From a virus, in the IMG/VR virus record IMGVR_UViG_3300010373_000005, positions 1-64,000 of that record: 64,000 nt of DNA; one strand, given 5' to 3'. Numbering within the stretch: the stretch's first letter is position 1; each line of letters opens with the position of its first letter. The notes below the pieces were generated by a model. The model made no database searches. It was not told the DNA's origin and worked only from the letters and a program-made list of their open reading frames with translations. Shown one piece after another: positions 4,955 to 18,722 of this stretch. Made by a program: the position numbers and the translations under genes.

Positions 4955-5353
4955 TCATCTCCTGCGACCCTTCCTTCCAGGCGCGGGGCAACCGCCCGGA
5001 GGGCAGCTGCTGCCACTGCTATACGAGGAGGTCTTGCGACCCTCCTCCGCGTCGTGTATCGCGTCATGAGTGGCGAGCATCTGCGCCCGCGACATGCCGG
5101 ACACGTCGACGCCGTGATCGCTGCGCAAGTGATCCGCGATCTTCCGGTCTGACGGCGACCAGTCTCCACTGATGTTCCAACGCATCCGGTAGGAGTAAGA
5201 TACGCTGGACGACACGGACGCGGGACGAGCCTTCGCCGCGACGGCCTTGCCGACCCTCACGAGGTCCCCGTCCGCGTCGGAGTACCAGGTGTCGGCACTG
5301 CACAGTCGAGTCGAGAGCATTAGTACTGCGACGACGTAGGTGCTGATCCTCAT
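4955..5353 (-). CDS. small secreted protein
   Basis: The ATG at 5353 overlaps the stop of 5350..6207 (ATGA). MRISTYVVAVLMLSTRLCSADTWY looks like a signal peptide. The upstream part of track ORF 4955..5788 is Arg-rich out-of-frame sequence. Confidence 0.55.
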   Translation of the reverse strand: MRISTYVVAVLMLSTRLCSADTWYSDADGDLVRVGKAVAAKARPASVSSSVSYSYRMRWNISGDWSPSDRKIADHLRSDHGVDVSGMSRAQMLATHDAIHDAEEGRKTSSYSSGSSCPPGGCPAPGRKGRRR

Positions 5354-6207
5354 CCCGCCTCCTGCGCGCCAGAGTCCACTGCGGCGACCACAATGATGTA
5401 CGCGTCGTTCTTCGTGGCGGCGTACTGTACGGAGCGCTCCTTGGCTATGAAACGGCCGTTCTTCTTGAGGCCCCAGGTCTTCGACCAGTCGTTCACGCCG
5501 TCGAGCATCCACTCGCTGCCAGACCAGATGAGCCCGTCTGCAGTCACCGAGTGATTGCTGATCCCCTGCACCGCGTTTACCGCGCCGTCGGCGTCGTAGC
5601 GCTCCCAGTTCCTGTCGACCCCGACCGGGTACACCGGCATCTTGCCGAGCTGTATCGCGAGGCAGATGTCGTCGAAGCTGTCTGCCGTGAGCGCCTCGGC
5701 TACCAGCCGGGTCTTGGCGGACGCCACGGCGGCAGCCGACATCTGGCTCACGAAGATGTTCGGGTAGTCGAACTCCGAGTGCAGGCACGCGCCGAACTGC
5801 ATGAGCCCCGTGGTCACCGCGTCGACGATGACAGCCCCGCGGTCCCGGTTCCCGTTGATGCGCGCGTAGATGCTCGCGCCGCTGAGCACCTCGAAGACGC
5901 CGGTCGCGAACCAGCGCGCCCTCATGAACGCGCCTGCCGAGGAACCTCCGACGCAGCCCGACGTCTGCATCTGGTTGAGGAACCAGTCAGACGTGAACAC
6001 GGTCTGGTTGTTGACTGGCTTCCACTCGCTGCGCGGAGGACGCTTGATCTGGTTCGCGTCGAGGTACTCCGAGAACGAGCGCAGCCCAGCGCGCATCTGG
6101 AGGTGGTTGTCCTCGACTGGATTCAACCCCACGAAGCGCTTCGTGCCGTCGAGCAGCTCGATGACGTGGCCAGCGTCGAACGGGTCGTTGCTGAGTTCTT
6201 CGCTCAT
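5350..6207 (-). CDS. papain-like (C1 family) cysteine peptidase
   Basis: The catalytic triad context can be read directly: Q..SGCVGGSSAGAF (Cys), ISNHSVTADGL (His), VNDWSKTWGLKKNGRF (Asn-x-Trp...WG..G). No signal peptide. Confidence 0.75.
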   Translation of the reverse strand: MSEELSNDPFDAGHVIELLDGTKRFVGLNPVEDNHLQMRAGLRSFSEYLDANQIKRPPRSEWKPVNNQTVFTSDWFLNQMQTSGCVGGSSAGAFMRARWFATGVFEVLSGASIYARINGNRDRGAVIVDAVTTGLMQFGACLHSEFDYPNIFVSQMSAAAVASAKTRLVAEALTADSFDDICLAIQLGKMPVYPVGVDRNWERYDADGAVNAVQGISNHSVTADGLIWSGSEWMLDGVNDWSKTWGLKKNGRFIAKERSVQYAATKNDAYIIVVAAVDSGAQEAG

Positions 6208-7211
6208 TGGCAGTACTTCCCTAGCAGGGCGTTCATGCCGACCTCGGTCGGCGGGAGCTTGAGCTCAGTGACGTTGTCGTTGAGCACGGTCCACGGCTTC
6301 GTCCTCGAGTCCATGACAAGGACGATCGGCAGTCCGCCGGCCTTGGTGACGAACTTCGCGTACAGCGTCGCCTCAGGGCTGTTCTTGTCCGCGACGGCCA
6401 TCTCCTTGACCTGCGTCCTGACGTTGTTGATCGACACCGCGCTCGCCAGCCAGTGACCGATGGGCCGCCTTGCCCAGTCGTCGATCGTGACCACGAACAC
6501 ACTCTTGAGCGGCACCTTGGTGACGACCGGTGCCGGCGGCGTGGGCCCGACCGGTGCCGGCGGCGTGGGCCCGACCGGCGCCGGCGGCGTGGGCCCGACC
6601 GGCGCCGGCGCCGGCGCGACTCCGGTAACCACCACGACGGTGATGACCGGCCTGGTCACGCCGACGCTGTTTCCAGTGTAGCCCAGCAGCCTGTAGCTGC
6701 CAGGCACGTGGGCCCACACGATGGCGGACTTCACGTCGGAATTGACTAGCTTGTGCGACTGGAACAGCCTGAGACCCGCGTCGATCGGATACCACTGGAC
6801 CACGTCGCAGTTGGTATCGGCAGTCACCTCCAGCGGCTCTCCGATCTCTCCGTCGACCTCGGCAGGCAGCGACAGGGTCGGCGCCACGCCCGGCGCTGGG
6901 GGGTTGACAGGCGCAGGCGGGTTGACCGGCAGCGGGTCAGCTCGCATCGTCCTGAGCGCCGACTTGAGGTCCGTCGCGTCGATCTTGAAGTCCACCTTGA
7001 CGGGTTGCACCTCGACGGGCGCGACGCTCACCGGCTCGGACTTGACGACCGGCGCGGAATCGGCAGCCTTGACCGGCTCGGCGACCTTCGCGGGCGCGGT
7101 CTCGACCTGCTCGGCTCGCGGCGTGCCGAACAGCGCCCGAGACGCAGCCGGATTGCCGTTGCATCCGGCGAGCATCACGCAGAACGACAGTAGCAGCGTG
7201 AATCTCTTCAT
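6204..7211 (-). CDS. lipoprotein with proline-rich tandem repeats
   Basis: MKRFTLLLSFCVMLAGC has a lipobox (LAGC). Contains PTPPAPVG x3 and PPAPVN x2 repeats. The start overlaps the upstream stop. Confidence 0.75.
   Translation of the reverse strand: MKRFTLLLSFCVMLAGCNGNPAASRALFGTPRAEQVETAPAKVAEPVKAADSAPVVKSEPVSVAPVEVQPVKVDFKIDATDLKSALRTMRADPLPVNPPAPVNPPAPGVAPTLSLPAEVDGEIGEPLEVTADTNCDVVQWYPIDAGLRLFQSHKLVNSDVKSAIVWAHVPGSYRLLGYTGNSVGVTRPVITVVVVTGVAPAPAPVGPTPPAPVGPTPPAPVGPTPPAPVVTKVPLKSVFVVTIDDWARRPIGHWLASAVSINNVRTQVKEMAVADKNSPEATLYAKFVTKAGGLPIVLVMDSRTKPWTVLNDNVTELKLPPTEVGMNALLGKYCQ
6525..6620. repeat. 24-bp tandem repeat, about 3.5-4 copies
   Basis: GACCGGTGCCGGCGGCGTGGGCCC occurs at 6525, 6549 and 6573 (the last with 1 mismatch), plus a partial copy. 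It encodes the PTPPAPVG repeats of the lipoprotein. Confidence 0.9.
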
Positions 7212-7588
7212 CACTTGCCTCCTGTCAGCTCTTCAGCGTGAGTCTCGGCGACAGTGTTCAGGGCGGTCACCAACTTCGTGTGACCGTTGAGCGACGCACT
7301 GGTGAGGGCCCGCGTCAGGTACATCCCGGCCTCTGTGGGCACGGTACCGTCGTCACGCGGAGCGACCGGAGGAGGCGCGTTGTGCGCCTTGTTCTGGTTA
7401 GTGTAGTTCTTGACGCACCCGCAGACGTAGGCCACGAGGGCCAGACCACCTGCAGAGATACCTAACGAGGTCGGCAGCGTAGGATCGTTCAGCATCGTCG
7501 TGCAGACCACCCCGCCGATGACGGCGAGCGAGTTGAGCACTGACGGCGTAACGGTCTCCACGGCCGAGGGAGCTTTGGCCGGGGTCAT
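7211..7588 (-). CDS. two-TM membrane protein (holin-like topology only)
   Basis: The ATG at 7588 overlaps the upstream stop (ATGA). Hydrophobic segments are LNSLAVIGGVVCTTML and LGISAGGLALVAYVCGCV. Confidence 0.55.
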   Translation of the reverse strand: MTPAKAPSAVETVTPSVLNSLAVIGGVVCTTMLNDPTLPTSLGISAGGLALVAYVCGCVKNYTNQNKAHNAPPPVAPRDDGTVPTEAGMYLTRALTSASLNGHTKLVTALNTVAETHAEELTGGK

Positions 7589-7858: not shown

Positions 7859-8143
7859 TCAGCGCAGCTCCACCGTGTGCGTGTGCACCGTGTGACGCCG
7901 CACCCGAACTCGGTGCTTGACGACCACAGGATCAGACGGTGCCGCGTAGACTCTCTGCACTGAGTACACCCTGGGCGCAGAGTAGACATGCACCCCGTAC
8001 GCCGGCAGCGAGTACTGCTGCACTGCGACGGGCGCCGCGCCGTAGTAGTTGTGCTCGACCCTGACGTTAGGACCCAGCAGCCAGCCTGCCTGGCACAGGC
8101 AGGGCGTGAGCAGCGTGACGAGAAGCGTGCTAACCAATCTCAT
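7859..8143 (-). CDS. small secreted protein
   Basis: MRLVSTLLVTLLTPCLCQAG has an N-terminal signal-like segment. The mature part is Tyr/Val-rich and repetitive (VYSAPRVYSVQRVYAAP). Confidence 0.55.
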   Translation of the reverse strand: MRLVSTLLVTLLTPCLCQAGWLLGPNVRVEHNYYGAAPVAVQQYSLPAYGVHVYSAPRVYSVQRVYAAPSDPVVVKHRVRVRRHTVHTHTVELR

Positions 8144-8504
8144 GTCTCTCCTCCTTTACGGTACTGATGATAGAACTGTTGAGCGTCACCTTCTCTCCGA
8201 CGTCAACTTCCATGGTGAGCAGCGGCGGCCACAACGTCGCAGCCTGAGGCTTCGTCAGGGCCTGCGCGCGCTGTATGAGGTCCTCGACGCGCATTCCGAG
8301 TTCCGGTCCGAGCACGATCGGCTTCTCGACCTGCTTGGCGTTGAGCAGAAGCGGGGTCTTGTGCTCCCCTGGGAACATGGGTTCCACGGTCTCGCACTCT
8401 ATGTTGTAGAACTCTGGAATCATGTCTATCTTGACCACGACGGCTGGCACGTATACCACGTCCCCGACCTTGAGCTCGTTGCCGTTCCTGTCGTGGTTAG
8501 GCAT
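8130..8504 (-). CDS. hypothetical protein
   Basis: ATG at 8504 with an AGGAGG RBS 8 nt upstream. 124 aa with no motif recognised. Confidence 0.55.
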   Translation of the reverse strand: MPNHDRNGNELKVGDVVYVPAVVVKIDMIPEFYNIECETVEPMFPGEHKTPLLLNAKQVEKPIVLGPELGMRVEDLIQRAQALTKPQAATLWPPLLTMEVDVGEKVTLNSSIISTVKEERHEIG

Positions 8505-8994
8505 GTCCTGTTCCTCCTGGCCCGAGATACCTGCAGCCACCTTCCTCTATGTTCTCTGCCAGCCTCTGGAGCGCGAGCGCCATCTTGTTGTCGTCCTCAC
8601 GCCTAAAAGATGCCTGGTTCTTGTCGTCCTCCCTCTTGACGTCCCACATGGTCTTGACGTCTTGTCGGTAGTTCATGATAAGCGTCTGCACCTGCTCGAA
8701 GTGCTGCTTGCGGGCCTCTGACAGGTGCTCGAAGTGCTGCTTCCTCATCTCTGTGAGCTGCTCAGTGTGAGACTTCTCTATGGCAGGTATCCTGCTCGTG
8801 GTCATGTACCACGCGTACCAGATGGCGAAGCAGGGCCCACCCAGCATCCCTATCACCACCCCTGTGCCTGCCGCCCAGGGCGGCACGCTCTCCATCGCGG
8901 CCCCTCCTGAGGCAGCGCCCTCTGCGGCGAACACCAGTACGGGCCAGAAGATGAGAGTCAGTAGCGGCACTACCGGGTTAGCCCACCTAGTCAT
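8497..8994 (-). CDS. membrane protein with C-terminal coiled coil
   Basis: Two hydrophobic segments (PLLTLIFWPVLVFA, VVIGMLGGPCFAIWYAWY). These are followed by the duplicated EMRKQHFEHLSEARKQHFEQ charged helix. Confidence 0.6.
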   Translation of the reverse strand: MTRWANPVVPLLTLIFWPVLVFAAEGAASGGAAMESVPPWAAGTGVVIGMLGGPCFAIWYAWYMTTSRIPAIEKSHTEQLTEMRKQHFEHLSEARKQHFEQVQTLIMNYRQDVKTMWDVKREDDKNQASFRREDDNKMALALQRLAENIEEGGCRYLGPGGTGHA

Positions 8995-9007: not shown

Positions 9008-10423
9008 TCAGTGCGATCCGTGCCCGTTGGTAGCCTCTATCCCCGCGGATCCGGCCGGAACCTGCAGGCGACCCTCGCCGGGCGGGGCCTCCTCCTGCAC
9101 CGCCTGCCGCGGGTCAGGATTCCGCAGCGGGCCGCCCGAAGGATCGTACCTCCCGCGGTGCAGCGTCTGCTGCGTGGTGCGCGTCGGCAGCTCCAGGACG
9201 TCCCTGATGGCCGGCATGTCGAGCACGTCGGCCTCCTCTGCCTGACCTCCCTCGTTCCCGAGGTGAGCCATGTACACCTGCTTGAAGAACGCGCGCTTCT
9301 CGCTGCTGAGTGGGGCAGCCTTTATCTTCACCATCCCGACGTACTCTTCGCCGCAATTGGTCTCCAGCAGCGGGTCGACCCCCTGCGAGTTTACCTGCGA
9401 CACCACGTCCCTGTGCGCCATCTCCTGGTTGTCGATGGCGAAATCCGCGTGCTCTCCGGCCTCAGCCTTGGTTCCGAACTGCCCCTCCGTGACCGCGCGC
9501 TCAGGAATGCCGAACGCCCTGCACTTGAGCGAGTCGAGGTATCTGCCGCGCTCCACGAAGTTGGCCTGCGTGCTCGCTGCGGACACGAGCTGCACCGACC
9601 AGGTCACCTTGTCCTGGCCTATGGAATTCAGGTCCTCGATCTGCTTGGCCACCGTCAGCGGGATGGTGATCACGCCCGACGACTGCAGCGTGTGTCCGAG
9701 CGCGCTCGCGATCCTCGCGTTGTCGGTCTCGACACCGTTGAGCATCGTGGTGCCTACAGGGTACTGGATCACCCAGCTGGCGCCAGCCACCTTGTTATCG
9801 AACCTCCTGGCAGCGAGCTCAGACTCGTAGTGCCCGTCGTACGGCACCTCGGCGCGCTTCATCAACGGCTCGCCGTACCAGTTCGTGCCCTCCGCGTCGT
9901 GGTAGAGTACCAGCGACTCCCCTCGCCAGAGTCTCGTAGGCTCGTGGTACTGGTGCGACCAGTACGGGGTGTTCAGGAGTCCTAAGATCTCGCCGTGCTC
10001 GTTGACGACGATCTCGGTGATGTCGTGCAGCAGGGACTTCATCTTGGTGATCTGCAGCGTGCAGTCAGGCAGCTGCCTGCGCACCAGCTCGAACCCCGCC
10101 CAGCCGTAGTCCAGCAGGCCCCTGAACGCGTCTCTGAGGAACTTCTGCCTGTGCGGCAGGAAGGACTTCTTTACCATATCCACGGCACTCTTGTACCGCT
10201 CTTCCTCAGCCTCTACCGTCCACTCACTGGCCAGGGCAGGCGCCATGAAGATGTCGCGCAGGAACCCGATCGTCGGGTCCCTGCGCATGATGCGAGCCTT
10301 GCGGTACCAGACTGACCGGTCCAGCACCGTCGCCGCCAGGATCTTTGCGCCCGGCGGCAGGTAGGTGCTGATGCCCGAGACGCGTGTCGTCTGGGCAGCA
10401 GTCTTGCTCTGGTGAGTTGACAT
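9008..10423 (-). CDS. portal protein (candidate)
   Basis: 471 aa. The size, the position in the TerL operon and the acidic/aromatic composition fit a portal. No database check was possible. Confidence 0.6.
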   Translation of the reverse strand: MSTHQSKTAAQTTRVSGISTYLPPGAKILAATVLDRSVWYRKARIMRRDPTIGFLRDIFMAPALASEWTVEAEEERYKSAVDMVKKSFLPHRQKFLRDAFRGLLDYGWAGFELVRRQLPDCTLQITKMKSLLHDITEIVVNEHGEILGLLNTPYWSHQYHEPTRLWRGESLVLYHDAEGTNWYGEPLMKRAEVPYDGHYESELAARRFDNKVAGASWVIQYPVGTTMLNGVETDNARIASALGHTLQSSGVITIPLTVAKQIEDLNSIGQDKVTWSVQLVSAASTQANFVERGRYLDSLKCRAFGIPERAVTEGQFGTKAEAGEHADFAIDNQEMAHRDVVSQVNSQGVDPLLETNCGEEYVGMVKIKAAPLSSEKRAFFKQVYMAHLGNEGGQAEEADVLDMPAIRDVLELPTRTTQQTLHRGRYDPSGGPLRNPDPRQAVQEEAPPGEGRLQVPAGSAGIEATNGHGSH

Positions 10424-10444: not shown

Positions 10445-12772
10445 CTACCGGCGAGACGCCAGGTATCGGTCCCTGCGCGACTGCGCCCCACCAGTGACGA
10501 CGACGCGGCCCTTGAGGGACGCGGCGACCTCCCTGACGAGCTGAGAGTCTGCTCCCTGCTCCACGTCGATCGAGTCTGCGTTCGCGTCGCACGAGAGCCC
10601 GAAGCCCGTGAGGGTCTGGACGCACTGAGTCATCGCGCGGTCGCTCAAGCCCATGATCGACATCATCGGACCGCTGATCCCACGCGCCAGCTTGTCCAGC
10701 GCCTTGCAGACGGACTCTGAGGCCGGCTCCTGCGTGCGGACAGTCCCGTCGGGAAGCACGCGCAGCTGGACGTTGTCCCACTCGGGGTTGAACTGCGCGG
10801 CCAGCTCGGCGTTCTCCCTGCGCACCTTCGCGTGGAACGCCACGGCCTCAGCCTTCGTCGGGAACTTGTAACTCCATGGTCGCTTATCCTGCTCGAGGTA
10901 GTGCGTCTCGACCGGGTCGTCGAGACGAGGGTCGACGACCGCGTCGTCGTCCGCGAAAGCTGCAGCCTGGCGCGCCAGATACCTGTCCCGTCGTGATGTT
11001 CCCATGCTGAATCTCCTGCCGAAACTCGCGAATTTCCCTGAGTCGTCGCGCTGGTGCTTGGACTCGTCGTAATGTCCCGCGACTGATCTCTGCCCGACGC
11101 GACCGATGACGTGCTCGCCGTACTTCTTGGTGATGCGCCTGTTGTACGGAGTATCCCGCACACGCTTGCCGCCCGTGAGCGACCTGCCGTACTCGTCCGT
11201 GTGCCGACCACCCGTGAGGTTCAGCAGCCCGGAGATGAGTCCCATGGATGCCGGCTTGAGGCCGACGGCCTTGCCAATCACCCTGGACGGATTCACCGCG
11301 TCGTTGACCCTGCCCAGCAGGCTGCCTGGCTTCTTCATCCGCGGTTTTTTGGGCTTCTTGGGCTGCGGAGGTTTCTTAGACCCAGACACTAGATTCTTGA
11401 CTCCCTTAGCCACACTACCTATCGGACCATGCCAATTGTCAATGTTCAGCGGGTTAAGATGAGTGAGTATTCCCATAGCCACTTCACGACGAGCTAGGTA
11501 TCGCAACTGTCGGTTGCCTGGACCGTATTCATTAAAACTCGCGAATTTTCCCTCATTATCCCTCTGATACTTACGAGCCGCTGCCTCGTGCTTGGCTTGA
11601 TCGCTCACTCTCATCTCACCTTTTTGCGTGCTGTGATACTCACCGTTCGCACGATAGCGGGCGGCCCGACCCTTGTGAATGTTTGCCATCAATTTGGCAC
11701 CAGGGATACTCGATTTCTCCCAGGATTTCTGATCAGCCTCATGCTTGTCCGCCAGTCCGTGATAGAACTTCGAGATGTCAGCATGCTTCATGGCACTGAC
11801 ACCTTCTGAATTCACGTACTGCCTGGGAGCACCCATCCTCCCTTTACCAAGAGTATTATGCCATGCCGTAGTCAAGTGATGTATAGGAGTCATCAAACCC
11901 AACGCGTGACCACGACTATCACATGCGAACGCGAAGTGCGTGGAGGGCGCCCTCTTGGACTTGATCAGCGACTCGTGGTAGTTGGCGTGCGCTGCGTGGG
12001 TCACGGCCTTGTCGCCGATGTCCTTGATCTTCGCCATGTAAGCCCGCTGCTCCTGGCGGTGGTGTTCGGCCTCCTCCTTCTGGTACTCCGGAGAGTTCTC
12101 CAGGTTCTCGTACCGACGCTTCAGGTACGCGTGCTTCTGCACCATCTCGTCGTGAAACTTCGCCTTCTTCTCGTTTGGCCCGAAGAACCTCCCGCCCTTA
12201 CGGGCGGCGGCGGCCTGCTCTGCGTGGTAGCGCATCCGGTTCGCGTGATGGTTCGCCCGGTCCTTGTTGTGGTGCGGGTCGTGCTTCAGGTTCGTGTGAA
12301 ATACGAGGTCCTCCGGGTCCTGCGCCATGGCAATTCCTCGCTGGTGCGTGGCGCCTGCCACGAATCTCCCCTGGTTGTATCGCGCCCTGTCGAGCAGCTG
12401 TCCCCTCCGGGCGAACAGCTCGTCAGCCTCGTCCTCGTGGTGAGTCCTGAGGTGAGGGTCGCGCTCCTGGGCCGCCCGCTCCCTGGCATGCTGGATGTCA
12501 GCGCCGATCCGGTTGAGCCTATCTGCCCCGTGCGCCTCGTGCTGCTCGTACTCGTTCCGTACCTTGCCGCCCAGGAACTGGGACACGTGCTCGACCCTCT
12601 TCTTCTGCCCAGGCGACAGGGCGTGATCGAGCACCACCACTCCACCGATGACGGCAGCGTGCATCCCGTACTTACGCAGCATGCTGACTGCCTTGGCGGC
12701 CGCCGCCTTGCTCAGGCCTATCACCGAGGTCTTGAACGTCGCCGTGAAGATGTCGCAGGCTACGTCTGTCAT
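10445..12772 (-). CDS. His-rich 775-aa virion/ejection-type protein
   Basis: Tightly packed between TerL and the portal. Many His-rich helices. Duplicated QRD(N/D)(E/S)GKFASF and RDRYLA motifs, and a lysine/proline linker KKPPQPKKPKKPRMKKP. Confidence 0.65.
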   Translation of the reverse strand: MTDVACDIFTATFKTSVIGLSKAAAAKAVSMLRKYGMHAAVIGGVVVLDHALSPGQKKRVEHVSQFLGGKVRNEYEQHEAHGADRLNRIGADIQHARERAAQERDPHLRTHHEDEADELFARRGQLLDRARYNQGRFVAGATHQRGIAMAQDPEDLVFHTNLKHDPHHNKDRANHHANRMRYHAEQAAAARKGGRFFGPNEKKAKFHDEMVQKHAYLKRRYENLENSPEYQKEEAEHHRQEQRAYMAKIKDIGDKAVTHAAHANYHESLIKSKRAPSTHFAFACDSRGHALGLMTPIHHLTTAWHNTLGKGRMGAPRQYVNSEGVSAMKHADISKFYHGLADKHEADQKSWEKSSIPGAKLMANIHKGRAARYRANGEYHSTQKGEMRVSDQAKHEAAARKYQRDNEGKFASFNEYGPGNRQLRYLARREVAMGILTHLNPLNIDNWHGPIGSVAKGVKNLVSGSKKPPQPKKPKKPRMKKPGSLLGRVNDAVNPSRVIGKAVGLKPASMGLISGLLNLTGGRHTDEYGRSLTGGKRVRDTPYNRRITKKYGEHVIGRVGQRSVAGHYDESKHQRDDSGKFASFGRRFSMGTSRRDRYLARQAAAFADDDAVVDPRLDDPVETHYLEQDKRPWSYKFPTKAEAVAFHAKVRRENAELAAQFNPEWDNVQLRVLPDGTVRTQEPASESVCKALDKLARGISGPMMSIMGLSDRAMTQCVQTLTGFGLSCDANADSIDVEQGADSQLVREVAASLKGRVVVTGGAQSRRDRYLASRR

Positions 12773-12774
12773 AG

Positions 12775-14121
12775 CTAGACTGGCACTGGTTCTGGGAGCG
12801 GCGGCGGAGCGTCCACCCCGGAGGTGAACACCTGCGGAACGGCGTCCGTGGTGACGACCACGGGCCTCAGGTAGTGTATTACATACCCTAGCGCGTCCGT
12901 GATGTGCCCCGCGTCTGGGGCGGAGTCATCGGGAGCCCTGGTACCCTCCTCGTATGCCCTCGTTCCCAGGTCGGCTATCAGGTTGGTGCACTTCGGGTTC
13001 ACGAACAGCGTGCGCTTCTCCGCGGCATCACAGAACGCCCGGTTGCATGCCGCGAACCTGTTCACCACCGCCGGGTTGGACTTGGGATAGAACACTCCGG
13101 AGCCCACGAACCGCTTGTCGTTGACGATCTGCACGTAGTCGCTCGTCGTGGCGCTCGTCTTCCTTGCCTTAGCGGTGGCGTCACCGAAGAACAGCCACTT
13201 GGCCTGGTGTCGAGTGCCGTACAGCTCGTAGAGCTTGTTGAGCGCTGCCTGAGTGTTGGTGTTCCTGATCCACAGCTCGTCGACGACGTGCAGCTCCTGC
13301 GTGCCAGGCTTCTGCTGCAGCAGCACCCACGCCATCGGATTGACGTTGAAGTCGGAACCGACCAGCAGGGGGATGTGCGGGCAGTACTTGAAGTCGCTCA
13401 GGTTGAGCTTCTCGTCGAACGCGTGGAAGATGAGGCCCGACGTGTCCTGCCAGTTGGCGCCGAACTGCTCGTCGAAGTCCTTCTTGTCCATCGACGCCAT
13501 CGCCAGCTCGATCTCCTGCTGCGTCAGGATGTCGTGCGACGGCCAGGTGTACGCCTCGTGGTCTGGCAGCGTGCCGGAGCCCCAGAGCGCGCACGCGTCC
13601 CTGAAGTCCTTCGCTCCTGGGCCCCACCTCTTGGGAACTCCGATCCGCCAGCACCGACCCTTGCGCTCGGTCAGGGCGGGTCTCACCGACCTGTCGAAAG
13701 ATCCCGGCTTGTGGTCGCATGACTCGTCAATGACGCCGAAGTCCCACTGAATGCCCTCGATGCGCGCGGGAATATCCATCCCGACTACCCAGAGCTGAGA
13801 CCCGAACACCGTCTTGATGCTCATGTCACTCAAGGAGATGCCGCCGTTGCGCGCCACCCAGCCGTCAGGGATGAGCGCCCGCAGCTTGTTCCACGCGACG
13901 CGCTTGGCCTGGTCGCGCGTGGGCAGCGCGTAGAAGAGCATCGGGTCAGACCACGGCCTGCGTATGGGCAGCTGCCGGATGACTCTTCTTCTTGAAAGAA
14001 GAGTCTTGCCGCTGCCTCGCCCGCAGGCGCACGCCACGAACCTCGCAGACGTCCGCCACAGGCGGTGCTGCTGCTCGTGGTAGAACATCTTGGGGTAGTC
14101 CCAGTCGGGCGTGAGTCCCAT
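12775..14121 (-). CDS. terminase large subunit
   Basis: Walker A CGRGSGKT and Walker B FGVIDESCD. Nuclease-type acidic motifs LVGSDFNVNP and DAGHITDALGY. The ATG at 14121 lies 1 nt after the upstream stop. Confidence 0.85.
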   Translation of the reverse strand: MGLTPDWDYPKMFYHEQQHRLWRTSARFVACACGRGSGKTLLSRRRVIRQLPIRRPWSDPMLFYALPTRDQAKRVAWNKLRALIPDGWVARNGGISLSDMSIKTVFGSQLWVVGMDIPARIEGIQWDFGVIDESCDHKPGSFDRSVRPALTERKGRCWRIGVPKRWGPGAKDFRDACALWGSGTLPDHEAYTWPSHDILTQQEIELAMASMDKKDFDEQFGANWQDTSGLIFHAFDEKLNLSDFKYCPHIPLLVGSDFNVNPMAWVLLQQKPGTQELHVVDELWIRNTNTQAALNKLYELYGTRHQAKWLFFGDATAKARKTSATTSDYVQIVNDKRFVGSGVFYPKSNPAVVNRFAACNRAFCDAAEKRTLFVNPKCTNLIADLGTRAYEEGTRAPDDSAPDAGHITDALGYVIHYLRPVVVTTDAVPQVFTSGVDAPPPLPEPVPV

Positions 14122-14122
14122 G

Positions 14123-17100
14123 TCAGTTCGCGCTCGGCTGCGGAGTCTCCCTGGCAGGCGCCGACGACACCACGCGCCCACCCAGCTTCCTGACGAGCCT
14201 CATCCCGGCCTTCGTCATCTTCTTCGCGACGACGTACGTGCCCTGCGCGGCGAGCGTGGCGACGACGCCCATGCCGACGAGACCTGCCACCGCGGCAGCG
14301 GCTGCAGGCATCGACATGAACTGGATGGTCACCGCGCCGGCGAGGGCCGAGGCACCCATGTCCATCTCGTACGAGGCGCCCCTGCCTGCCCGGATCTTCC
14401 CGCACACCCTGCGCGCGGCCTTGACAGACCCGTAGCGCCTCTGGGCATCAGCAACGCACTTATTCCAAGGATACCTCTTCTTTTTCTTCGCGAGGCCTAC
14501 GGCGAGCTTGGGGTGCCTGCGCGAGACGACCTTGGGCTTCGGACCGTCGCACTCTGCGCCGCAGAACTCTGCAAAAGAATAGTACGCGTCGTGCGACCTG
14601 TCTCGCTCGGCCATCTGCTCCGCGACATTGCCGGTGGCCTGCACCTTGCCTCCGAGCTTGCTGAACACGCTCCTGAGCTTGCCCATCAGCGCGCTCGTCA
14701 CCCCGTAGACGACCAGCACCGTGCCGGCGCCCGCGGCTCCGACCGCGACGCCTGCCGCAGGCACCGCGAGGGTAGCAGTGAGCCCCAGGGCGATCAGCAT
14801 CCTCATGGCGGTGCGCGCGACGATGCCAGAGCCGAACTTCACGGCAACTGCCGTGCCGGCACCCTTAGCTATCGCGGTGCCCGCAGAGAACGACGCGGCG
14901 CGCCACTCCCCGTGGCTGTCTCGCGGGTGCTGGCTCTCGTTCCAGCCGCCGTGACCTCCGCCGGGGCGCGCGCCCGATCCGGGCGGCCTGCCGGGACCCC
15001 GCCTCACCTGGGGCCCCTCGCTGTCGTAGCGAGGTTCCACCGCGTGCTGCGGGACCCCGCGGGCCTCGTGCTCCCTGCGGGCGGTCTCCCGGGCCCTGTC
15101 CTGGTGGTAGTCCTGCGCATGGTCGTCCTCGATAACGCGGTTCACCTCGTTCGCGTGCGTGATCCTCGTGATCGGGCCCTTGGGCACCGGCGCGGGCTTG
15201 CCCTTGAACGCCCGGGCGAGGCCCTGCACGATCTTGTACGAGGCGTAGCTCGACACCCCGAACACGAGGATGGCGGTGCCGACGCCGGTCGCCACGCCCG
15301 CTGCGGCTAGTCCTGCGGTCAGTCCGAGCTGCAGCGCCCTCCGAACGACATGTCCCGCGACGCCCTTGGCGACCGAGATCGCGACCTTACCCCCGGAGAT
15401 CATGCCGAACTCGCACGCGTCGAAGTACTCCACGTCGTCGAACGACAGGTGTCGCCACTCTCCGTGCTCGTCCCTCGGGTGTCGCTCCTCCTCCCAGCGG
15501 ATCGCGTGCGCGCCGTGGTGCCTGGCGATGGCGTACACGTGCTGCGGAGGGTGGGCGTGCTGGACGTGAACCTCGTGCTCGCCCTCGTGGTCCCCCTTGG
15601 CGTGCACCATGGCCTTAAAGCCCTTGGACGCCAGGTGCTCGATCGCGGCGAGGGCCGCCACCTTGCCCGCGAAGTGCAGCACGGCCTTGCCGACGAACTT
15701 GGCGGCCGGCATGCTGATGCCGAACGCGTAGGACGCGCCCTTGCCCTTGGGCTTACTCTTCGTAGCCTGACGCGCAGCCTTACGAGCCTCCTTCGTCTTC
15801 TTGGCCCTGTCTGCGGGTGTCTCGGGCCGGAACCCGGGATGTGATTGGATCGCGTCCCACCCCGTGGGAGGCTTGGTCGCGTTTGCCGCCACGTCGTAGA
15901 TGTCGTGCAGCGGGTGCTGCGGACCCGTCTCCTGGTTTGTTCCCGGCCCGCTCGGCATGAGCTGCCGGGCGTTGCGAGCCTCGCGCGCTGCTACTCTTAC
16001 CTTACGCAATTGGCGCCCGTGGTAGTGCTGCACTATCGACTCGAAGACCTTCGCTAGTACTGCGGAGAGTCCCGCGGTCATGTGCCCGTACTGGTCGGTG
16101 TTCGCGTCGACGATACCCGCGTCCCTCGCGGCCTGCAGCGCCTTCTTGGCGACCACTGCTGAGCCGAAGTCGATGGCATACATCACCGCCGCGCCCTTGG
16201 CCGACACGTCCTTCTGCTGGTACTTGCTCTGGCTCTTGGGCGAGAACGACCCTGGCATCGGGATGATGGGTCCCGACGTCTTGTACATGATGGGGACGTG
16301 GTCTACGTGCTTCTTGTCCTTAGGATCGACCGCCTCCATGATCGTGTGGTGCACGATCTCGTTGGCCTGCTCGTGAGTCATGCCCGAGAGGATGAACCCG
16401 TTGCCGATCATTGTCGGCGTGATGCCGTGCTGGTTCCTGACTGCAGTGAATGCCGCCTTGGCCCACGTCGGATAGTTGAACATCACCTTGAAGTCATAGG
16501 TGGCATCAGCGCCGTTGAGGGCGAAGGCGTGGGACATCGCCTTCACCGGCGAGCCCCTGTACTTCAGGATGGCGTAGTTCACGGCCTTCATTGGGCCTCT
16601 GACGAGCATGCGTCGCTTCTTGTCCTGTCGCGCCACGGTGCACCCCTGGTTCTCGAGGAACTTCTGCGCGTCCTCGGCGTCCTCGAGCTGCTCGAAGTAG
16701 AGCCTCAGCTTGCGCTCGGATGGTTCCTGCCGCGTCCCGTGAGGCGGATTCCGCGACTGCGAGATCTCGGAGTGCGGCTGCTGCGGAGGTGCTTGAGGCT
16801 GAGTCGCGGTATCCATGCTCATGTCCCTACCTGTTGACCCCAAGAAACGAAGTGCGGCCCTGCGCACTGTTGCCTCGTCGTTCACCGCATCGCACTGTAC
16901 TGTCCATATGCCGTTCACCTTGCGATGCCAATCAAGGTCGCAGGGTGGAGACTCTTGCTTCAAGACCCATCTCACGAAAGCTTCCGCTGCCACTTGAGAA
17001 GGAAAGTGCAGCACCACTTTTCGCTCCACTCCGAACGAGTACCAGAAGTGCGACGAATCCTCCTTCTTGCGCTTGTCAAGACCTCGAGACACTCTGAACC

Positions 17101-18304
17101 CGTGACCCGCCGAAGTGTGTGGAGTCTCGTTCGGTCCGATAGAGTACCCCAGAGTTCGCAGGCGATTCATGATCGCGGACATCATACCTTTATTTCGTTG
17201 CTCTTCGGCTACCGCAATACGAATGGGCGTGAGGATCTTAGATCCAGGCTTCTGCCCGAACTCAGAATGGGCCATTGCCATTCTGTCTTCGTCATTAGGA
17301 TCCTCAATATATGCTATGAGCTTACCGGGCTCTTTCTGGATCTTAACATGCTTCTCCCACTCAGCTCCGTTGAGATTGGACTTGAAACTCATGCTCCATA
17401 GTCTTCGTACGTTCTTGCCGGGCCTGAACCTCACGATCGCCCGCTGGTGACTCAGCGTCTCGACGCCGTTCTGCGGGTTTGTAGTTATTTTAGGCTGTCG
17501 ATTGACAGCTTCAAATACTCCAAAATTGCGAAACTCCACGCGCTTGCCGTCGTTCAGGTGGTACACGATCATGTTAAGGACGTGATCCAGGGCCATTGCC
17601 GCGCGACCCTGCGTGATACCTGTGGCAGATGCCAGAGACTTCAGGACATCGTTCTTGGTGATAGTGTTGGACTTGAGGGCCATGCTGATAGACTTATCCT
17701 GCGCCATGTACGCGTGTCTCGCCGGATCGTCGTCAGGCCCGGGCCGCCCGGGCCTGTGAACTACGCACCGGTTCAGCTGCCTGAGCGTGGCGACCTTGCA
17801 CATAACGTGGTTGGCGTGTTGCTCTAGGCGCTTCACTATTCTGTGGCGCCCGTCCAGCACGTCGTCGTGAGGGCTCAGGATGATCGGCGTGTCCGGGTGC
17901 GCCCTGGCGACACGCTCCTCGCTGTAGCCTGTCTTAGGGTCCTTGTTGATCTTGTGCAGGAAGTCGCTCAGCGGGCGCTCGACCAGGGGGTTCTTCTCCG
18001 TCTCAAGCTTGAGACGGGCCACGTCGATGACAGGTACGACGCCCCTGCGTGCCTTCACCTTGTAGTGCGGCGGGACACCCACTGTCTCCGGCTCAGCGGA
18101 TGCCTCGCCCCCGCGGTGCCTGAGCTGCCTTACGCGGTACCTGTCGCCGTATGCCGCCGCGACAGCCCTCCGGGCCCGGCGTCGCCTGCGAGCCGCTCGC
18201 TCAGGGAGCTTCTTTCCCTTGGGTGTGTGCTTCTCCCAGCGGGCCGCCATCTCGGGATGAGTGGCGTGCATCCACCGGCGCTGCGCCTGACTGACCAGCG
18301 GCAT
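14123..18304 (-). CDS. polyvalent virion protein: ParB-like nuclease + HU/IHF + GNAT + three HPRD/Gly-zipper TM repeats
   Basis: Start at the ATG at 18304 (MPLVSQAQRRWMHA). DGRHR ParB/Srx motif at about 17780-18043. Full HU/IHF domain (FRNFGVFEAVNRQPKITTNPQNGVE) at about 17405-17683. GNAT Q/RxxGxG/A-like EEQRNKGMMSAIM at about 17120-17377. The C-terminus has 2x HPRD.HGEW and 3 Gly/Ala-rich TM segments. Confidence 0.8.
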   Translation of the reverse strand: MPLVSQAQRRWMHATHPEMAARWEKHTPKGKKLPERAARRRRRARRAVAAAYGDRYRVRQLRHRGGEASAEPETVGVPPHYKVKARRGVVPVIDVARLKLETEKNPLVERPLSDFLHKINKDPKTGYSEERVARAHPDTPIILSPHDDVLDGRHRIVKRLEQHANHVMCKVATLRQLNRCVVHRPGRPGPDDDPARHAYMAQDKSISMALKSNTITKNDVLKSLASATGITQGRAAMALDHVLNMIVYHLNDGKRVEFRNFGVFEAVNRQPKITTNPQNGVETLSHQRAIVRFRPGKNVRRLWSMSFKSNLNGAEWEKHVKIQKEPGKLIAYIEDPNDEDRMAMAHSEFGQKPGSKILTPIRIAVAEEQRNKGMMSAIMNRLRTLGYSIGPNETPHTSAGHGFRVSRGLDKRKKEDSSHFWYSFGVERKVVLHFPSQVAAEAFVRWVLKQESPPCDLDWHRKVNGIWTVQCDAVNDEATVRRAALRFLGSTGRDMSMDTATQPQAPPQQPHSEISQSRNPPHGTRQEPSERKLRLYFEQLEDAEDAQKFLENQGCTVARQDKKRRMLVRGPMKAVNYAILKYRGSPVKAMSHAFALNGADATYDFKVMFNYPTWAKAAFTAVRNQHGITPTMIGNGFILSGMTHEQANEIVHHTIMEAVDPKDKKHVDHVPIMYKTSGPIIPMPGSFSPKSQSKYQQKDVSAKGAAVMYAIDFGSAVVAKKALQAARDAGIVDANTDQYGHMTAGLSAVLAKVFESIVQHYHGRQLRKVRVAAREARNARQLMPSGPGTNQETGPQHPLHDIYDVAANATKPPTGWDAIQSHPGFRPETPADRAKKTKEARKAARQATKSKPKGKGASYAFGISMPAAKFVGKAVLHFAGKVAALAAIEHLASKGFKAMVHAKGDHEGEHEVHVQHAHPPQHVYAIARHHGAHAIRWEEERHPRDEHGEWRHLSFDDVEYFDACEFGMISGGKVAISVAKGVAGHVVRRALQLGLTAGLAAAGVATGVGTAILVFGVSSYASYKIVQGLARAFKGKPAPVPKGPITRITHANEVNRVIEDDHAQDYHQDRARETARREHEARGVPQHAVEPRYDSEGPQVRRGPGRPPGSGARPGGGHGGWNESQHPRDSHGEWRAASFSAGTAIAKGAGTAVAVKFGSGIVARTAMRMLIALGLTATLAVPAAGVAVGAAGAGTVLVVYGVTSALMGKLRSVFSKLGGKVQATGNVAEQMAERDRSHDAYYSFAEFCGAECDGPKPKVVSRRHPKLAVGLAKKKKRYPWNKCVADAQRRYGSVKAARRVCGKIRAGRGASYEMDMGASALAGAVTIQFMSMPAAAAAVAGLVGMGVVATLAAQGTYVVAKKMTKAGMRLVRKLGGRVVSSAPARETPQPSAN

Positions 18305-18305
18305 T

Positions 18306-18722
18306 CTACGCCCCCTGCTGGGCCGCGCAGGCCGCGAAGCACTCCTGGGCCGCGTCGGCGCTGCCGTCTCGCACGGCGTCGAGCGAGTGCAGGGCGAGCG
18401 CCTGGGCCTGGGCCCGGCCGTCCTTGCCGAGGTTGCGCACGTGCCTGTCACGTCGGAGCTGCTTCTTGGACTCGACCACCGCGGGTCCCAGCACGCTGTC
18501 GTCGTAGCTGCTGGTGTCCTCGTGGAAGGCAGCCTGCACGTGCTCCTGGGTCGTCTCGGCGGTAGCCTGAGCGGGAGCGCACTTCGAGAAGATCGACTGG
18601 AGCGCGGCAATCACCGCGCTCACCATGCCGAGGATCGTGAGTGGGTCGATGCCCGCGAGCTGGGGGTCAGCTGACGCGTTGCTCGCGGCTGCCTGACAGA
18701 TCTGAGTATCCTGCACGTTCAT
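18306..18722 (-). CDS. hypothetical protein
   Basis: The ATG at 18722 overlaps the stop of 18719..18916 (ATGA). 138 aa, MNVQDTQICQAAASNAS... The track ORF N-terminus is Arg-rich shadow sequence. Confidence 0.55.
   Translation of the reverse strand: MNVQDTQICQAAASNASADPQLAGIDPLTILGMVSAVIAALQSIFSKCAPAQATAETTQEHVQAAFHEDTSSYDDSVLGPAVVESKKQLRRDRHVRNLGKDGRAQAQALALHSLDAVRDGSADAAQECFAACAAQQGA

Follow-up and report, generated by a model that had tools for sequence, protein, structure and literature searches.

Phage polyvalent proteins are very large chains of unrelated modules, encoded in late or structural gene blocks, in which ParB-like domains of the DdrB type and GNAT domains are recurrent and which are packaged in phages of the portal-terminase type (Iyer, Burroughs, Anand, de Souza & Aravind 2017, PMC5512222). 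The nucleic-acid-binding domains listed for them are ArdC-N, MutS-I and FtsK as well as Rho-N; HU is not among them (PMC5512222). The ejection protein gp16 of phage T7 measures 1318 amino acids (aa); inside the capsid its transmembrane (TM) regions adopt a globular form, and DNA is bound by the C-terminal domain (PMC8954989). The protein pA104R of African swine fever virus shows that virions can make use of an HU homolog (PMC5499826, PMC7712801). Here we describe a protein of 1393 aa, in the following called the giant, which is encoded on the minus strand at positions 14123-18304 of the IMG/VR virus record IMGVR_UViG_3300010373_000005. The window, that is the whole stretch of DNA analysed, comprises positions 1 to 64,000 of this record (64,000 nucleotides, nt). 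The giant combines an HU/IHF DNA-binding domain, a chain of predicted ferredoxin-like repeats and several short portable modules, and its gene lies directly 5' of TerL. It is possible, though somewhat short of probable, that the giant is a capsid-internal, DNA-associated protein of an uncultured tailed-phage clade which is ejected with the genome, analogous to T7 gp16.

The giant resembles polyvalent proteins in being a very large chain of unrelated modules, encoded in the late or structural block of a phage of the portal-terminase type (PMC5512222). In the loose sense of the term it is a polyvalent protein, with HU, repeats and further modules in one chain and with TerL and the portal adjacent. 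None of the polyvalent hub domains (zincin MPTase, MuF, ArdC-N, DarB-type methylase-helicase) was found with Pfam and PHROGs in the giant or in its five relatives. Moreover, the tandem ferredoxin-like repeat with hydrophobic variants, which forms the bulk of the giant, is undescribed in the account of polyvalent proteins (PMC5512222). With T7 gp16 and its analogues in P22 and Sf6, the giant has in common the size (1318 versus 1393 aa), an N-terminal accessory domain, a DNA-binding domain, extreme divergence, and hydrophobic regions that are globular prior to ejection, which in the giant appear to be embedded in foldable units. However, it shows no sequence homology and no detected structural homology to these proteins: Pfam and PHROGs gave no match to the ejection families gp14/15/16 and gp7/20/16, and Foldseek on the repeat unit returned generic ferredoxin-like folds. 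The genes of T7 gp16 and its analogues follow the head or tail genes, whereas the giant is encoded 5' of TerL and is predicted to bind DNA via a canonical HU/IHF fold. We propose that the giant may work like podovirus ejection proteins without being homologous to them. With TerS it shares the position directly 5' of TerL and a DNA-binding capacity, but it is approximately ten times larger, is found in a subset of the TerL clade only and matches no TerS family in Pfam, PHROGs or NCBIfam.

Concerning the gene itself, the interval 14123-18304 holds one uninterrupted open reading frame (ORF) of 1393 codons plus stop. The original prediction had described such a single open frame and had missed the strand; the ORF is on the minus strand, and the plus-strand frame of the same interval is riddled with stops. 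The frame of the giant is open further upstream, to position 18610. An ATG equipped with an AGGGGG ribosome-binding site is found at 18304, 2 nt past the stop codon of the previous ORF, and its Met is the first residue of a conserved N-terminal tag. In view of the ribosome-binding site and the conserved tag, we take this ATG as the start. An identical protein from the Joint Genome Institute (JGI), P0001 (1382 aa, on a 78.6-kb metagenome contig), has its start called 11 codons late. The exact protein is known from one contig only. With the full-length giant as query, tblastn against 50,697 GenBank phages found nothing, and a word-indexed search of 5.8e9 proteins returned the self-match only. 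Querying those 5.8e9 proteins with a profile of the conserved core gave no match at all, the entry of the giant included, which we ascribe to low-complexity words swamping the candidates and regard as uninformative.

Nearly all transcription in the window is on the minus strand, as are all features of the window given below. The order of transcription is primase-helicase, DNA polymerase I, SNF2-type helicase and methyltransferase, followed by the giant, TerL, a 775-aa protein designated W775 and a Mu-type portal; the window is a lytic-type phage genome. TerL (12775-14181) matches phrog_2 with 1.4e-22. The giant gene runs at its 3' end into the start of TerL, and the placement of the giant immediately upstream of TerL in the original prediction was correct. 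The portal (9008-10423) matches PF06074 with 1.7e-7, over the cutoff of this family. Scans with TerL profiles retrieved approximately 65 related loci. Homologs of the giant are encoded at five of them, L001 (P0038), L002 (P0037), L003, L004 and L045. In all five the giant lies directly 5' of TerL or one small ORF further, and TerL is 55-60% identical (58% for L001 and L002). Most relatives of the TerL clade have neither HU nor a giant beside TerL.

The HU/IHF domain (aa 216-300, 17405-17659) is, judged by profile and PDB sequence matches, a true and complete member of PF00216, and the textbook HU/IHF domain of the original prediction is borne out. It matches PF00216 with 3.1e-17 and 63.1 bits (cutoff 22.4) over model positions 2-86 of 90, and the best PDB sequence matches of the segment are IHF and HU, with 8e-12 and the full fold covered. 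The beta-arm TTNPQNGVE aligns with NP.. in the HU domains of all relatives, and its proline is conserved. We take the proline of NPQNG to be the HU/IHF intercalating proline (R-N-P-x-T-G type). The HU-HIG model of Bacteroidetes gives a weaker overlapping match, and the HU domain of the giant is not of that type. The likeness to bacterial HU/IHF thus comprises the complete fold and the arm with the intercalating proline; whereas the bacterial protein is a free dimeric protein of approximately 90 aa, the domain is here embedded in a chain of 1393 aa. HU is present, fused or as a neighbouring gene, in every relative with the region available and is therefore ancestral at this position of the family and no novelty of this gene. 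Within the family, the HU domain of the giant is an outlier. It scores 39-48 bits against the relatives and 48 bits against IHF, versus 46-72 bits among the relatives. GC content at third codon positions (GC3) is depressed over HU in this giant alone among the giants.

Most of the remaining chain is built from a repeat. Three conserved core blocks yielded hidden Markov models (HMMs) which cross-match one another and define a unit of approximately 57 residues, present in 5-7 copies per giant. Iterative HMM search and alignment revealed six units in the protein described here: unit 1 (aa 535-586, 16547-16702), unit 2 (aa 600-657, 16334-16507), unit 3 (aa 708-765, 16010-16183), unit 4 (aa 873-933, 15506-15688), unit 5 (aa 1152-1222, 14639-14851; HMM 1e-11) and unit 6 (aa 1324-1379, 14168-14335; HMM 1.4e-10). 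Unit 3 was modelled. AlphaFold2 on the soluble unit (aa 705-769), with an alignment of 18 repeats, gave a predicted local distance difference test score (pLDDT) of 94.7 and a predicted template modelling score (pTM) of 0.80, with a predicted beta-alpha-beta-beta-alpha-beta topology. Foldseek against PDB and BFVD returned generic ferredoxin-like folds only (designed ferredoxins, HMA, PII/ACT, BMC-H), all with E of at least 0.02. The predicted fold of the repeat is clearly ferredoxin-like and comes with no functional label. A SPOR-like repeat, considered from the sequence pattern, was rejected in view of these generic Foldseek results and no SPOR match in Pfam. The several unassigned globular segments noted in the original prediction are present, and they now form this single repeat family.

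Hydrophobicity was calculated as the Kyte-Doolittle mean over 19 residues. Three Gly/Ala-rich segments reach values of 1.98-2.07, and two of them are uncharged runs of approximately 37-41 residues. The first segment (aa ~986-1023, 15236-15349; 1.98) lies outside any detected repeat unit. The other two align as hydrophobic variants of the ferredoxin-like unit, namely unit 5 (2.07, with its uncharged run at aa 1166-1206) and unit 6 (2.04). Of the three glycine-zipper membrane repeats proposed originally, the hydrophobic Gly/Ala-rich segments are present, with two of them belonging to the ferredoxin-like repeat. GxxxG pairs number 2, 1 and 0 in the three segments, and patterns of the type small-xxx-small-xxx-small number 5, 3 and 1, respectively. 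Strongly hydrophobic stretches were found in four of the five relatives, in each case within the first half of a repeat unit, and are lacking in L001 (P0038). Since two of the three segments belong to the ferredoxin-like repeat family, the hydrophobic stretches may be foldable domains and not constitutive TM helices. A junction signature, [GA]-[AS]-S-[MFY]-[GAS]-[FML] (GASYAF, GASMGL, AASF), was also seen to recur between modules in the giant, W775, P0037, L004 and L045. It is commoner than in shuffled sequences in four of six giants (L002, L004, L045 and the one described here) and might mark sites of processing or serve to cap a domain.

In addition to these domains, the giant carries three kinds of short portable modules. 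The first is the N-terminal tag (aa 1-36, 18197-18304; MPLVSQAQRRWMHATHPEMAARWEKHTPKGKKLPER), with the consensus MPxxSQAQRRWMHAxHPEMAxRWExHTPKGKKLPE. It heads hundreds of phage proteins of 60-1152 aa that are otherwise unrelated, a GH24 lysozyme among them; 35 unrelated proteins have only the tag in common, at the N-terminus and with 60-83% identity. IMG/VR holds at least 488 matches (loci including L073-L152 and L235, 6001-6219). The tag is predicted to form a helical hairpin (pLDDT 86-96 in an AlphaFold2 model of aa 1-205) and has no relative in Pfam or PDB. Portals of four different families lie beside tag genes, accounting for 6 of the 91 neighbouring ORFs scanned. In Streptomyces phage FlowerPower the tag heads a 72-aa protein adjoining the holin. 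This neighbourhood and the fusion to lysozyme prompted the idea that the tag marks membrane proteins, which was rejected, as TM-like segments occur in 4 of 35 and 2 of 26 carriers versus a background of 9%. At L071/L072 (8001-8957), a tag-bearing protein of 318 aa is encoded two genes 5' of a GpA-type TerL, in a phage that also has genes for a multisubunit-type RNA polymerase in fused form and for a giant protein containing InPase.

The second module is the motif YPWxKC...RYGS...VCGKI (aa ~1275-1312, 14369-14482), hereafter the YPW motif, with the consensus YPWxKCxxDxxxRYGSxxxAxxVCGxIxA and two invariant cysteines. In an exhaustive search, it was the sole part of aa 301-1393 with relatives among 1.84e9 proteins. 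These relatives are Peptidase_S78 prohead proteases, a ChaB-protease, an HK97-type capsid fusion and two analogous giants. The motif has 312 matches on viral contigs (loci L153-L232), and 12 of the 37 distinct carriers in IMG/VR contain S78, XkdF or Mu-I protease domains; DUF3721 is found in 6 of the 37. Carriers are prohead protease or scaffold proteins and small genes downstream of portal or DUF6712 genes. Among the 81 ORFs nearest to small carriers that have no protease domain, Phage_portal was found 9 times, DUF6712 12 times, MuF twice and XkdF once. As a mini-domain, the motif is not in Pfam or PDB.

The third module, here called the RD motif, follows the pattern [QH]PRDxxG[KRE][FW], mostly with a Ser/Gly-rich junction after it, and is enriched approximately six-fold (22 observed versus 3.7 expected). 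Two copies are present in the giant, at aa 942-955 (15440-15481; HPRDEHGEWRHLSF) and aa 1126-1139 (14888-14929; HPRDSHGEWRAASF), which are the two HPRD.HGEW motifs reported before, beginning at aa 942 and aa 1126. Among 47 genes of the window, only the giant and W775 have the motif, and the RD-motif proteins of the relatives directly flank TerL. A form of the same motif class, DPSQPRDExG[KR]W...GGG, was seen in 1-3 copies in further TerL-flanking proteins at L023 (11297-17385), L012 (8552-9568), L025 (1667-2041) and L004 (4219-5049).

W775 (10445-12772), the sister protein located between TerL and the portal, contains two RDxxGKFASF motifs and one ferredoxin-like repeat unit. A block of 59 residues corresponds to aa 713-771 of the L004 giant (E=3e-16). 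W775 has no family match. This paralog across TerL, the tag and the YPW motif had been overlooked in the original prediction. Among the relatives, the same modules are distributed differently over neighbouring genes. At L001 the tag and the ParB-like region form a separate gene of 595 aa directly 5' of the HU-giant, with approximately 450 aa that are absent from the giant of the window; at L002 HU is in an upstream gene; at L045 the ParB-like domain is a 244-aa ORF between giant and TerL; and at L003 the tag is found at the head of the protein just past TerL. Giants with HU fused in frame (1030-1451 aa) occur independently in L001, L003 and L045. Gene fission, gene fusion and an exchange of modules across TerL are thus all represented in the family.

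The region described as a ParB nuclease in the original prediction (aa 92-180, 17765-18031) is a ParB/Srx-like candidate. It is homologous to aa 58-146 of the separate gene of L001 (8201-9988) and to aa 153-244 of the L045 ORF (5792-6523). The motif DGRHR, at aa 151, is present in the giant and in L001 and reads DGNHR in L045, so that the alignment of the three sequences shows D, G, H and R without variation. The region matches only the unnamed phrog_17560 (4e-5). No ParB/Srx family was recovered with Pfam (searched with E up to 10) or with NCBIfam, nor by a profile of the three sequences run against those of the PDB. In the AlphaFold2 model of aa 1-205, which was made with no homologs in the alignment, pLDDT is 33-61 across the region. 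We use ParB/Srx-like as a label given by the motif, short of an established family membership. Hence, of the two domains HU and ParB, whose recovery by profile searches the original prediction had set as its test, HU was recovered and ParB was not; by that measure the prediction is half refuted. That the ParB-like domain is a constant companion of TerL was considered and rejected, as it is present at just three loci.

Downstream of HU, aa 301-500 (16805-17404) form an insert specific to this giant, with no homolog among 1.84e9 representative proteins nor in any relative. The GNAT domain suggested originally falls into this insert, at aa ~350-386. The motif EEQRNKGMMSAIM is literally present, and a stretch of approximately 30-35 residues around it is acetyltransferase-like. 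Profile matches to this stretch are all sub-threshold (Acetyltransf_7, E=0.041 and 14.7 bits versus a cutoff of 27, over ~35 residues; phrog_3810, E=0.012), and the segment has no PDB or NCBIfam match. The sequence IRIAVAEEQRNKGMMSAIM fits R-x-x-G of acetyl-CoA motif A, yet ends in M instead of G/A. GNAT is accordingly a motif-level guess and not an established membership.

The insert is also conspicuous by its composition. Windowed GC3 falls to 0.55 at aa ~300-410 versus 0.85 +/- 0.07 in other genes, which agrees with the AT-rich HU/GNAT portion noted before, and the minimum coincides with the insert. Among the 42 genes scanned (the giant and 41 others), the only other island of low GC3 lies inside W775 (aa ~260-510, down to 0.48). 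The compositionally foreign part appears to be the insert of approximately 200 aa together with the divergent HU copy. A recent acquisition, as suggested for the HU/GNAT part, is compatible with the composition of the insert and of this HU copy, but not with HU as such, which is ancestral. The simplest reading would be recombinational module exchange with lower-GC phages, concentrated in the giant and W775.

For packaging, ejection, membrane insertion and any enzymatic activity of the giant we infer the following course. The protein would be expressed at the head of the late packaging and head gene block. Short address modules, namely the YPWxKC mini-domain, the RD motifs and possibly the tag, would recruit it into the procapsid. 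The HU/IHF domain, acting as a dimer, would bind and bend phage DNA; any enzymatic activity of the ParB-like and GNAT-like parts would be directed at DNA or at proteins of the host; and the ferredoxin-like chain would be compact inside the capsid. Upon infection, the giant and the DNA would leave together via portal and tail. Those variants of the repeat that are very hydrophobic would then unfold and insert into the host membrane, where they could help to form or anchor a DNA conduit, and HU would hold or protect the incoming genome. Packaging receives indirect support from the YPW motif, whose other carriers are prohead proteases, scaffolds, a capsid fusion and portal-adjacent genes. That the giant and W775 bracket TerL at the start of the head-gene block counts for it as well.

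Several points weigh against a packaged and ejected protein. The YPW motif is missing from L003, L004 and L045 and therefore is no universal loading signal for the family. Scans with Pfam and PHROGs found none of the hallmark polyvalent domains, such as MuF, zincin peptidase and ArdC-N, and detected no relationship to ejection proteins already known. In the window, neither a prohead protease nor any other gene for a protease, capsid or scaffold was recognised. The giant occupies the slot where TerS usually lies, and the genes of known ejection proteins are usually placed after those for head or tail. The hydrophobic stretches may be nothing more than buried cores. The clade, finally, has no cultured relative to draw on, TerL of the nearest cultured phage being only 34% identical.

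The giant could instead be a TerS-like or IHF-like accessory of packaging initiation which is itself not packaged. HU would bend pac or cos, the ParB-like part would bind or nick, and the DNA would be presented to TerL. Lambda terminase uses host IHF at cos, and HNH nucleases assist HK97-type terminases. The established role of IHF at lambda cos speaks for such an accessory, as does the location of the giant at the usual TerS slot, its 3' end overlapping the start of TerL, with no other TerS candidate recognised upstream. Furthermore, HU accompanies every relative with the region available, and the ParB-like module is always within the TerL-proximal cluster, be it fused as in the window, as a separate gene in L001 or in the gap between giant and TerL in L045. 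Yet approximately 1100 residues, comprising the repeats, the hydrophobic segments and the motif of prohead proteases, would be left without a role, TerS proteins are small oligomers, and none of the TerS families is matched. HU and giant are absent beside TerL from most of the TerL clade and are therefore not a core packaging component. We consider this accessory role unlikely.

Alternatively, the giant could act inside the infected cell as a membrane-anchored organiser, its hydrophobic segments serving as anchor in the inner membrane of the host while HU and the ParB-like part tether phage DNA there for replication, packaging or the exclusion of competitors. Phage phi29 p16.7 would be the analog. 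The hydrophobicity of the three segments and the length of the two uncharged runs fit this role, and so do the bona fide DNA-binding domain and the lipoprotein and secreted or TM proteins encoded downstream of the portal. It is, however, quite improbable: a signal peptide and an anchor at the N-terminus are both lacking, the soluble repeat can be aligned with two of the three hydrophobic stretches, the YPW motif goes with a head module, and the gene is in the late head block and not among the replication genes. Even though the tag and ParB-like region are a separate gene in L001 and HU is separate in L002, the exact protein comes from one contig and Met is found at several domain junctions (e.g. 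...SISMALKS before HU), a fusion of adjacent genes (tag-ParB, HU, GNAT-like, repeat) by frameshift or lost stop in that contig is extremely improbable, since the frame is open over 4.2 kb at 62% GC with coding-type GC3 throughout, in-frame HU-giants occur independently in L001, L003 and L045, and the separate gene of L001 has so many residues more that simple stop loss cannot explain the fusion.

Some further observations concern the neighbourhood of the giant and its relatives. The genes 3' of the portal at 6204-7214, 7859-8143 and 8497-8994 resemble envelope rather than head proteins. One encodes a putative lipoprotein of 336 aa that has an LAGC lipobox as well as PAPVGPTPP repeats, another a protein of 94 aa whose N-terminus resembles a signal peptide, and the third a 165-aa protein with an N-terminal hydrophobic segment. 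Next to them, 5350-6207 (285 aa) gives a weak match to a PHROG annotated as peptidase (phrog_16701, E=7e-4) and might function in lysis or as the maturation protease that is otherwise missing. Scans of the window for promoters and terminators gave counts no higher than chance, and genome-assembly matches for host inference were limited to two short contigs of metagenome-assembled genomes (MAGs), which are uninformative. At L003, an ORF of 153 aa (9546-10007, plus strand) lies between giant and TerL and overlaps the end of the giant at 9571. By eye it opens with a ferredoxin-like repeat, and the repeat HMMs detect none; if it is a repeat, the ORF might continue the giant after a split or a frameshift and not be TerS. 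RadC/JAB domains are a component of polyvalent proteins, and one had been guessed in L003 (5372-9571, aa ~150-340) from IIHNHPSNS; it was discarded, as Pfam recovers none. ORFs of 1104 aa located 5' of TerL in L017-L020 and L038 turned out to be unrelated and fibre-like.

As far as sequence comparison goes, the novelty of the giant lies in the repeat family and in three short modules that are widespread and undescribed. Beyond the analogy to gp16, the giant might represent an undescribed type of capsid cargo, in which an HU clamp is joined to a ferredoxin-like chain whose hydrophobic variants switch to a membrane-inserted state, and in which the tag and YPWxKC are portable procapsid address labels used across unrelated phages; we regard this as a doubtful, rather unlikely proposal. 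If the giant is indeed packaged and ejected, an HU/IHF fold would travel with the genome of a tailed phage, and we know of no other tailed phage in which this is the case. It would also provide a simple model for foldable repeats that double as membrane-inserting segments during genome delivery. The tag, YPWxKC and RDxxG[KRE][FW] are widespread in viral metagenomes and carry no family annotation. These three modules could be of use in annotating proteins that are associated with the head or carried as cargo, or for bringing foreign proteins into capsids.

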